From an uncultured Eubacteriales bacterium (lineage in GTDB: Bacteria; Bacillota; Clostridia; Oscillospirales; Acutalibacteraceae), in contig CAKVDR010000001.1 in the NCBI GenBank assembly GCA_934726435.1, forward strand, positions 1-45,482: a stretch of DNA of 45,482 nucleotides. Reading direction: 5' to 3'. Positions within the stretch are counted from its first letter, which is position 1, and the number at the start of each line of letters is the position of its first letter. Position numbers and translations under genes: made by a program. The notes below the pieces were generated by a model. It was given only the letters and a program-made list of their open reading frames with translations, searched no databases and had not been told where the DNA came from. Below, piece by piece: positions 43,967-45,482 of the stretch.

Positions 43967-44228
43967 TATAGACAATTTTAGACTGTTTTTATGGCGTTTG
44001 AAGTAAATCGTGTTAGTTCACTGAATTTTATTTAATAATTTTATACTTTTGGGTTGAAATTCTGAAATATTGTTTTTTTGTGTACAAAACTCAAAATTTG
44101 TGATATTAATTTTAATGTAAAACTAAATATGGAGGATCACATGAAAATAGTTAAAAAAATTTTTGTTTTAAGCACTTCCGCAATTTTGGGGTTAAGTTTT
44201 TGCACTGGGACTGCTTTTGCGAGTGGAA
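43967..44228 (+). repeat. Repeat module, 5' part, copy 1 (about 175-nt upstream region plus signal peptide)
   Basis: It aligns with 44924-45185 at high identity. The block acttttgggttgaaaNtctgaaatattgtttttttgtgtacaaaactcaaaatttgtgatatta is nearly identical between the two copies. Confidence 0.85.
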
Positions 44229-44485
44229 TATCTAAAAAAGGATCTAAAATTTCGGTTAAGCATACAGTGAGCAAGCCGTATCCTTATAATAAACTTCGCA
44301 GGACATCTGAAATGAATGCTCACTATGGTATTGGAATTTCGGATGCTATTAGAAAAAGCTCGAAGTCTGTTCCTTTGAAATTTGAAGATGACGTTTTCAA
44401 AAATTTGAAAGAGGAAGAAGCTAGGCCAGTTGATATGTTTTTGCTTATGTTTGATTTGAACTATTACGAAAAATTAATGATATAA
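44141..44485 (+). CDS. Small secreted protein (114 aa) within repeat module 1
   Basis: GGAGGA RBS. The signal peptide is MKIVKKIFVLSTSAILGLSFCTGTAFA-S. Its mature part is unrelated to that of the copy-2 gene. Confidence 0.65.
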   Translation: MKIVKKIFVLSTSAILGLSFCTGTAFASGISKKGSKISVKHTVSKPYPYNKLRRTSEMNAHYGIGISDAIRKSSKSVPLKFEDDVFKNLKEEEARPVDMFLLMFDLNYYEKLMI

Positions 44486-44509
44486 AAAATGCTCCGAGAA
44501 AATCGGAGC
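44482..44509 (-). terminator. Bidirectional hairpin, a strong intrinsic terminator for the minus-strand 5S rRNA gene
   Basis: GCTCCGA, GAAAA, TCGGAGC occupy 44491-44509. On the minus strand ATTTTTTAT follows. On the plus strand the hairpin also ends the 44141 gene. An identical copy lies at 45414-45432. Confidence 0.75.
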
Positions 44510-44590
44510 AATAAATTTATGAATTCACACGGTAATGAGATCGTGTGGATAACTTTTTATTTTAATAAACTAAAAAAAGGCATAAAAAAA

Positions 44591-44706
44591 GTTGGCATTT
44601 TCCTATCTTCCCAGGCCGCTTCCAGCCAAGTATTTTCGGCATCATCCAGCTTAACTACCGTGTTCGAGATGGGAACGGGTGTACCCTGGATATCATCAAC
44701 ACCAAC
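44591..44706 (-). rRNA. rrf: 5S ribosomal RNA, stand-alone (no adjacent 23S or 16S)
   Basis: The reverse complement reads GTTGGTGTTGATGATATCCAGGGTACACCCGTTCCCATCTCGAACACGGTAGTTAAGCTGGATGATGCCGAAAATACTTGGCTGGAAGCGGCCTGGGAAGATAGGAAAATGCCAAC. It contains the universal CACCCGTTCCCAT..CGAACACGG.AGTTAAGC core. The termini pair as helix I (GTTGGT with GCCAAC). Confidence 0.85.
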
Positions 44707-44712
44707 ATCTAT

Positions 44713-44741
44713 ACTATACCACGCCTGTTTTATATTGTCAA
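44713..44741 (-). promoter_or_regulatory. Consensus sigma-A promoter driving the 5S rRNA gene
   Basis: On the minus strand: TTGACA (44741-44736), a 17-nt spacer ending in TGG, then TATAGT (44718-44713). The -10 element lies 6 nt before the mature 5S 5' end. Confidence 0.75.
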
Positions 44742-44923
44742 GTGTTTTTTTCAAATTTTTTTAAAAAATTTTTTATTTCGAATTTTACTAGGCGGAATGG
44801 GAGATAGCAGTCATTCACTTTTTGAGTTTATATTAAAACCTGAGAAAAAATCCCCCGCGTAAAATTGGAATCTCAAATTCATGGTTTCACCAAATCGATA
44901 AATTTTAATGGTATTTTTTCTAT

Positions 44924-45185
44924 TATAGACAATTTTAGACTATTTTTATGAGGTTTAAAATAAATCATATTAGTTTACTAAATTTTGTTTAATGATTTTA
45001 GACTTTTGGGTTGAAACTCTGAAATATTGTTTTTTTGTGTACAAAACTCAAAATTTGTGATATTACTCTTAATGTAAGATTAAATATGGAGGATCATATG
45101 AAAATAATTAAAAAAATTTTTGTTTTAAGCACTTCTGCAATTTTGGGATTAGGTTTTTGCGCTGGAACTGCTTTTGCTAGCACCA
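44924..45185 (+). repeat. Repeat module, 5' part, copy 2
   Basis: It aligns with 43967-44228, an offset of 957 nt. Confidence 0.85.
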
Positions 45186-45397
45186 CACCTAAATGTGGTT
45201 ATGAAATTGATATAGCCAGGCCGATCCCTGTTAGGCCAAGGCTGAATAGAGGGCTTCGTAGATCGCCTGGAGCTCATTTCATGAGGGATGGGAAGATTCG
45301 TATTTATGGCTCGGTATACGACGCTGCTTCATTAACTTATGGTGATCATGAAGAAATTGAAGGACTTGATATATATTCATATCTTCATAAGAGCTAG
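45098..45397 (+). CDS. Small secreted protein (99 aa) within repeat module 2
   Basis: GGAGGA RBS. The signal peptide is MKIIKKIFVLSTSAILGLGFCAGTAFA-S. The mature part (TTPKCGYEIDIARPIPVRPRLNRGLRR...) is unrelated to that of copy 1. Confidence 0.65.
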   Translation: MKIIKKIFVLSTSAILGLGFCAGTAFASTTPKCGYEIDIARPIPVRPRLNRGLRRSPGAHFMRDGKIRIYGSVYDAASLTYGDHEEIEGLDIYSYLHKS

Positions 45398-45407
45398 AAT
45401 AATCAAT

Positions 45408-45482
45408 AAAAAATGCTCCGAGAAAATCGGAGCAATAAATTTATGAATTCACACGGTAATGAGATCGTGTGGATAACTTTTT
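45408..45482. repeat. Repeat module, 3' part, copy 2 (identical to 44485-44559, which leads into the 5S 3' end)
   Basis: The 75 nt are identical to copy 1. They include the GCTCCGAGAAAATCGGAGC and CACACG...CGTGTG hairpins. The repeat is truncated by the window end. Confidence 0.85.

Follow-up and report, generated by a model that had tools for sequence, protein, structure and literature searches.

The right end of a 45,482-nt stretch of DNA from an uncultured Eubacteriales bacterium (assembly GCA_934726435.1, contig CAKVDR010000001.1; the whole stretch is hereafter the window) carries a unit of about 0.95 kb that occurs twice in tandem. Each copy holds a gene for a small, putatively secreted protein, namely open reading frame (ORF) A in the first copy and ORF-B in the second. 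Each gene is preceded by a conserved 5' block and followed by a conserved 3' block, beyond which a 5S rRNA gene lies on the opposite strand. The features are listed below in window coordinates.

43921..43955, plus strand: predicted intrinsic terminator of the upstream paralog gene (43423/43528-43917), from a terminator scan; the copy-1 5' block begins immediately after it.
43957..44140, plus strand: 5' block copy 1, putative promoter/operator DNA of ORF-A, from the repeat and an 11-sequence cross-species alignment.
44141..44485, plus strand: ORF-A, 114 aa, comprising a predicted signal peptide (44141-44224) and an 86-aa mature part, from the ORF list.
44482..44558, no strand assigned: 3' block copy 1, two predicted crossed terminator hairpins, from the terminator scan, folding and conserved pairing.
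44590..44706, minus strand: 5S-a rRNA gene, stand-alone and convergent with ORF-A, from Rfam RF00001.
44713..44741, minus strand: predicted 5S-a sigma-70-type promoter TTGACA-17-TATAGT, from a promoter scan, 11/12 matches.
44742..44913, no strand assigned: spacer between the divergent predicted promoters of 5S-a and ORF-B, weakly conserved in the cross-species alignment.
44914..45097, plus strand: 5' block copy 2, putative promoter/operator DNA of ORF-B, from the repeat and the cross-species alignment.
45098..45397, plus strand: ORF-B, 99 aa, comprising a similar predicted signal peptide and a 71-aa mature part, from the ORF list; a diverged ORF-A paralog.
45406..45482, no strand assigned: 3' block copy 2 with both hairpins, cut by the window end, 100% identical to 44482-44558.

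Repeat finding delimited the 5' direct repeat to 43957-44251 versus 44914-45208 (295 nt, 86% identity), and BLAST aligned 43957-44223 with 44914-45180 at 89.5% over 267 nt. The repeat spans 184 nt before the ATG (44141; 45098 in copy 2) together with the 28-codon signal peptide. A 24-nt core of this block occurs twice in the window, both times within the repeat copies, where 0 occurrences are expected by chance. The 3' repeat, 44482-44558 and 45406-45482, is 77 nt long and 100% identical. A first-pass annotation of the window had described a repeated unit of this size, and it is indeed present, with 5' blocks that are 86-89% and 3' blocks that are 100% identical; the coordinates given there were correct to within a few bases, with the 3' block off by 1-3 nt. 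The same annotation had the 3' block leading into a 5S gene. The adjoining gene is real, but it is encoded on the minus strand and converges with the ORF, and the repeat spans it. Positions 729-969 of contig L010 (L numbers are our handles for contigs and loci other than the window) match 44482-44722 with one mismatch, which extends the 3' repeat to about 240 nt, through the whole 5S gene. The window end falls within this repeat; it stops at 45482 because assemblers stall there, and the identical ~240-nt repeat accounts for the breaks that assemblies of this genus have here. Between the blocks, the mature coding parts of ORF-A and ORF-B are not alignable as DNA (38-48% identity).

The 5S-a gene matches Rfam RF00001 over its full length (model positions 1-120) with 83.3 bits against a gathering score of 38, and full-length matches were also obtained for 5S-b in L010 and for the 5S genes of relatives. 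These genes are 97.6-99.2% identical across species whose 4-fold degenerate (4-fold) sites reach 73-76%, as is characteristic of purifying selection. The 5' end of the 5S lies about 7 nt past its TATAGT promoter element, and both 5S promoter hexamers are retained at 9/9 other 5S copies for which the alignment extended across the promoter. Neither the window nor any related locus has a match to 16S or 23S (small or large subunit) rRNA genes, and hence the 5S genes are not part of a canonical rrn operon here. The first-pass annotation had also predicted a second 5S gene just beyond position 45482. It exists: L009 and L010 both run past ORF-B into it, it is complete in L010 (837-953, minus strand), and synteny agrees in L017, L023, L025 and L033.

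The terminator scan identified two hairpins in the 3' block. The T-run of hairpin 1 (44490-44510) is on the minus strand and that of hairpin 2 (44523-44550) on the plus strand. The block was far more stable than shuffled sequence, with folding z-scores of -7.1 (plus strand) and -4.5 (minus strand). Across 9 copies from about five species, pairing was kept in 97.5% of cells, compared with 25-47% when the controls were slid; hairpin 2 contains compensatory substitutions, and the loops vary. The predicted hairpins thus combine a G+C-rich stem, a U-run and conserved structure, as intrinsic terminators do. Hairpin 1 would terminate 5S transcription and hairpin 2 that of ORF-A, making them crossed terminators of convergent units. 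The 3' arm of hairpin 2 also contains, in both units, a perfect DnaA-box 9-mer TTATCCACA (minus strand, 44544-44552 and 45468-45476), and TGTGGATAA in this arm is invariant across all species. Only three perfect DnaA boxes exist in the 45-kb window, and those near dnaA each have one mismatch. The box in hairpin 2 could be coincidental, as a G-rich arm tolerates U/C changes in its partner.

We next considered how many units exist. Many short contigs from human-gut metagenomes encode the exact ORF-A or ORF-B protein and break at the repeat (10 metagenome contigs for exact ORF-A). Two units, and never more, were present on contiguous assemblies of four relatives: L017 (160 kb), L033 (158 kb), L023 (304 kb) and L025 (121 kb). 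L017 and L032 are the metagenome-assembled genome (MAG) UMGS1703, an uncultured Ruminococcaceae, and L033 is close to UMGS1750. The gene order in these relatives is mnmG-rsmG-serS, a cluster of small secreted-protein genes, ORF-A, 5S, ORF-B, 5S and then dut-mreB-mreC-mreD-PBP2. The expectation of further tandem modules downstream therefore failed, since exactly two units are followed by dut-mreBCD in all four. A third unit had been suspected at the right end of L010, where one nucleotide alone separates the two flanks, and was dropped.

It is extremely unlikely that the two units are an assembly artefact, that is, one unit written twice or a mixture of strains. The window does end within the repeat where many short contigs break, and two short contigs (L004 and L031, below) follow a one-unit path. 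However, ORF-A and ORF-B are distinct genes, each with separate orthologs; L005 and L006, which come from other samples, cross ORF-A, 5S and ORF-B at 99.9-100% identity; and both units sit on contigs of 120-300 kb in four related species.

The first-pass annotation had also allowed that the 5' block might be a generic repeat found all over the genome; among GTDB representative genomes, it is restricted to this locus. A degenerate leader-core pattern and a 5S 40-mer recovered this locus only, in two uncultured Ruminococcaceae MAGs and four metagenome contigs, and these searches returned no 23S-linked copy or further diversity. An exact search of representative genomes with 58 nt of the 3' block gave no match.

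The surrounding genes place the locus close to the chromosomal origin. The window encodes gyrA, gyrB, recF, dnaN and dnaA on the minus strand and rnpA, yidC, mnmE, mnmG, rsmG and serS on the plus strand. Because the cumulative GC-skew minimum lies near 28 kb, the origin is about 14 kb away from the units, and the orientation of the 5S genes is head-on to replication, which is unusual for rRNA genes. The probable oriC flanks dnaA (~28557-28850 and 30168-30677), where the GC skew changes sign. DnaA boxes with one mismatch also occur in this region, several at 28451-28737 and another at 30406.

The stand-alone 5S gene appears older than the duplication. Among 20 dut loci of related Clostridia, one from a more distant MAG (L037, Dut 62% identical) has a single stand-alone 5S at the same site and in the same orientation, with its own promoter, adjoining a gene unrelated to ORF-A or ORF-B. 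A single 5S at the dut site of this outgroup implies that the gene predates the duplication, contrary to the earlier proposal that the 5S is a passenger of the module. The adjoining L037 gene (2356-2676, plus strand, convergent with the 5S) encodes a 106-aa peptide whose long leader, ending ...ENVSGG, looks by eye like the Nif11-type or double-glycine leaders found in ribosomally made peptides.

Conservation differed sharply among the segments of the unit. The 3' block and 5S gene are 91-100% identical between the copies of one genome, versus 76-92% for the 3' block between species, and species-specific hairpin variants are common to both copies of a species. Copies that are alike within genomes and different between species point to gene conversion of the 5S gene and terminators. 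Upstream of the 5S promoters, sequences cluster by slot (the position of the unit) rather than by genome, which is why the conversion tract would end at the 5S promoter. A tract alike within each genome, with flanks that group by position, is the pattern left by tandem duplication with concerted evolution. Taken together, we consider it likely that a secreted-protein gene and a stand-alone 5S gene were duplicated in tandem long ago, giving two copies that gene conversion has partly homogenised.

The 5' block shows a different pattern. As a neutral baseline we used the 4-fold sites of serS, which are 73-76% identical between these species (96-98% for the SerS proteins). Between species, the core of the 5' block (-95 to -1) reaches 82-86% identity, above this baseline, whereas far-upstream DNA of slot 2 has only ~50% identity, and the core is therefore under constraint. 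Within genomes, the two 5' blocks are 87% identical in the species of the window versus 72-77% in other species. Copy 2 here also has the far-upstream TAGAC-N5-TAGAC box, which is absent from the slot-2 leaders of other species. From these two features we infer that, in this lineage, copy 1 has additionally converted the 5' block of copy 2.

Both ORFs open with a 28-residue signal peptide ending AFA and followed by S. The sequence, MKIVKKIFVLSTSAILGLSFCTGTAFA followed by S, fits a charged N-region, hydrophobic core and A-x-A motif by inspection and is under strong purifying selection, suggesting that ORF-A and ORF-B are Sec-type secreted proteins with a type I signal peptide. Among orthologs, dN of the signal peptide is 0.03-0.20 and omega of the mature part is 0.3-0.9 (dN/dS was computed with Nei-Gojobori code). 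Mature parts have 26-66% amino-acid identity, and ORF-A of the window is 47-63% identical to all of its orthologs except that of L018. At the DNA level, identity is 51-79% among type A orthologs and 51-74% among type B orthologs, while A versus B (40-53%) is at background level. Nevertheless, hhalign of the mature A and B profiles gave a probability of 90.7% (E 1.3e-6, 67 columns), and both types have SKIxVKP...LRRSP and acidic C-terminal motifs in common. The mature parts are thus fast-evolving, diverged paralogs by profile comparison and not unrelated cargo, so the first-pass description of them as unrelated holds for DNA but not for the distantly homologous proteins. LRR is invariant and LRRSP mostly conserved, and we speculate that this motif may be a processing site.

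Neither ORF-A, ORF-B nor the neighbouring secreted paralogs had a credible match in Pfam, NCBIfam or PDB sequence searches. The family is tiny and unannotated, with 13 clusters in 5.8 billion proteins and 7-8 representatives in 1.84 billion. An AlphaFold2 model was poor (predicted local distance difference test 54, predicted template modelling score 0.16).

These comparisons largely refute the first-pass interpretation of the locus as a cargo-swapping cassette, in which conserved flanks act as recombination sites that exchange unrelated inserts and carry the 5S along, and we now regard it as very improbable. It would account for conserved flanks around a middle that is unalignable as DNA, and for slot 2 of L025, where type A stands in place of type B as if replaced once through homologous flanks. 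However, the inserts are homologous and the slots are orthologous in 4/5 species (slot-2 orthologs occur in L017, L019/L033 and L023). Mature parts that are homologous and mostly keep their position across species are not swapped cargo. Nor does the locus vary as that of an integron or mobile cassette does: there are two units only, at a single conserved chromosomal site between serS and dut, the core motif was found nowhere else in representative genomes, and the 5S was at the site before the duplication. No integrase, recombinase or transposase was found among the larger ORFs of the 45-kb window that were put to Pfam or NCBIfam, all of which are housekeeping genes or unannotated small secreted proteins.

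We also considered what the 5' block does. In copy 1 it contains a TAGAC-N5-TAGAC direct repeat (43969-43983), TTGAAA (44054-44059), a TGTACA palindrome (44081-44086), an extended -10-like TGTGATATTA (44099-44108) and a GGAGG ribosome-binding site (44131-44135) five bases before the ATG of ORF-A. TTGTGT/TGTACA sits 17-18 nt upstream of TGTGATATTA, and TGTACA is the near-palindrome recorded in the first-pass annotation. Read by eye as a promoter, these two elements would leave a 5' untranslated region of only ~25 nt. The boxes further upstream (TTGAAAC-TCTGAAATATT and the TAGAC repeat) may bind a candidate regulator. By-eye comparison of the promoter core with SigE, SigG, CodY-box and Spo0A-box sites gave fits that were too poor, and these assignments were rejected.

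The same block might instead be transcribed as a long structured RNA leader (a riboswitch, protein-binding leader or attenuator) that controls ORF-A and ORF-B, and the ~184 nt conserved between copies before the ATG, with a ~95-nt core conserved across species, would be in keeping with one. We nevertheless judge this to be very unlikely. Folding z-scores of the two blocks were +0.63 and +0.41, no better than shuffled sequence. The RNAalifold consensus reached -8.5 kcal/mol with changes on both sides in one predicted pair only, and Rfam at permissive E-values returned no match in the 5' block even at E = 0.2, only noise. It is the sequence that is conserved and not the pairing, and the best promoter-like elements lie 30-60 nt before the ATG, within the block. 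Because it lacks RNA structure, we read the 5' block as promoter/operator DNA, with control presumably at the DNA level. Of the two roles suggested for it in the first-pass annotation, an operator or promoter is plausible, and a structured RNA leader is disfavoured.

The close convergence of ORF and 5S raises the possibility of a functional pairing, in which strong, growth-rate-dependent 5S transcription would extend into the 3' end of the secreted-protein gene and tune ORF-A and ORF-B to ribosome synthesis by interference or by an RNA duplex across a predicted overlap of ~60 nt. Convergence and the crossed order of terminators are kept in every unit of every species examined, and the duplication took the pair as one unit. 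On the other hand, the outgroup 5S is paired with an unrelated gene, the T7 run right after helix I of the 5S may end most 5S transcripts ahead of the hairpins, and shared terminators are common among convergent genes. On balance, such a pairing seems improbable.

Returning to tandem duplication with partial conversion, the history and workings of the locus can be outlined as follows. The ~0.95-kb unit would consist of two independent convergent transcription units, a secreted-protein gene and a monocistronic 5S on the opposite strand. ORF-A and ORF-B would each have their own promoter/operator, the 5S would be transcribed from its near-consensus sigma-70-type promoter, and transcription from both sides would meet at crossed intrinsic terminators. 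Duplication would have copied an orphan 5S gene beside dut along with its convergent neighbour. Gene conversion would then keep the 5S genes and terminator block near-identical within each genome, while purifying selection would hold the ~95-nt promoter core and signal peptide. In this species, a further conversion may have brought the two 5' blocks closer over their whole length. The mature protein parts would have evolved fast and drifted apart.

Several observations weigh against parts of this account. In the window's own species, no one contig extends from ORF-A past ORF-B as far as dut. Two short contigs, L004 and L031 (the latter from a UMGS1703-like strain), join ORF-A, the last 5S and dut without ORF-B (in L004 the order is 5S, a different flank and dut). 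This one-unit form reflects either an assembler's collapse of the 240-nt repeat or a genuine deletion variant formed by recombination between 5S copies. In L025, type A occupies both slots (5120-5464 and 6013-6357), with mature parts that are 79% identical as DNA. Slot content is therefore replaceable, presumably by recombination between the conserved flanks, and an older whole-unit conversion or unequal crossover would be implied. The ORF promoter elements are weak by consensus and were missed by the promoter scan; more generally, promoters, start site and terminator use are predicted at the consensus level. Finally, the proposed conversion of the 5' block is drawn from a comparison of identities (87% versus 72-77%).

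The two units adjoin a larger group of similar genes. The signal peptides of ORF-A and ORF-B are similar to those of a paralog cluster upstream, and serial duplication seems to have produced the set of secreted proteins in the whole serS-dut interval. On the plus strand, 38278-43917 holds about nine consecutive small-protein genes that have similar signal peptides (…ILSLG.xCSGSxFA followed by S) and no Pfam or NCBIfam match. Tandem paralogs at 41694-42197, 42194-42829 and 42835-43383 recur every 551-641 nt, and the ORF at 41331-41666 resembles a C-terminal fragment. Gene number in the cluster varies by species, from 5 to 9 in L023, L025 and L028. The paralog at 43423-43917 has an in-frame TGA (43483-43485) where relatives have a Cys codon (TGC) in the signal peptide. 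The same TGA-bearing sequence occurs at 99.95% identity in L001-L003 from other samples, and homologs in L017 and L034 are intact. This gene is probably a pseudogene, or else is translated from the ATG at 43528 into a product without a signal peptide. Separately, a coding tandem repeat at 40283-40523 (period 24/36/72 nt, ~10 copies) encodes a KPKDELKDKSID-type repeat within a 312-aa secreted protein (39854-40792).

Bacteria commonly have 5S genes that are extra or unlinked (PMC2686494). The rRNA gene counts are unequal in 23.6% of bacterial genomes, in most of these because of additional 5S copies (the rrnDB paper, PMC2686494), Leptospira has separate rRNA genes that are each under their own promoter (PMC2686494), and Francisella has an orphan 5S fragment (PMC3479022). 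The genes described here are similarly full-length 5S genes away from 23S, with their own predicted sigma-70-type promoter and terminators. Unlike those cases, the 5S gene is present here in two tandem copies that each converge with a secreted-protein gene and run head-on to replication, at a distance of about 14 kb from dnaA/oriC.

Gene conversion is usual among rRNA gene copies and results in their concerted evolution. As in that process, copies within a genome are closer here than orthologs, and the tract consists of the 5S, its 3' trailer and the terminators. In contrast to it, the tract stops at the 5S promoter, and the neighbouring coding part escapes in most species.

The Borrelia Erp/OspEF ('upstream homology box') and Mlp lipoprotein families combine a conserved upstream region and signal peptide with divergent mature proteins. 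The present genes share with them a conserved promoter region and export signal, fast mature parts and an origin by local duplication. They differ in being chromosomal, in belonging to gut Clostridia and in having a signal for type I signal peptidase (by inspection) rather than that of a lipoprotein, as well as in having just two members with this leader, linked to 5S genes. Superficially, the locus is also like an integron array, with repeated hairpin-bearing boundaries around variable coding inserts. Unlike integrons, it has no integrase or attC-type sites, its hairpins are predicted terminators, each gene has its own predicted promoter, and the inserts are homologous and keep their position across species.

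These results suggest that the cassette-like pattern is an ordinary product of tandem duplication, rRNA-type gene conversion and unequal selective constraint on one segment. Of modest interest is the stand-alone 5S gene itself, at a conserved site beside dut and head-on to replication close to oriC. The 5S genes of the two units might even be the only 5S genes of the lineage, with the overlap coupling the secreted proteins to ribosome synthesis, although we think this unlikely. If both were the sole 5S genes, the 5S would be fully unlinked from 23S in this lineage. Of similarly modest interest, small, putatively secreted proteins that evolve fast and are restricted to the lineage have a hotspot in the serS-dut interval of this human-gut genus, which is without a cultured representative.

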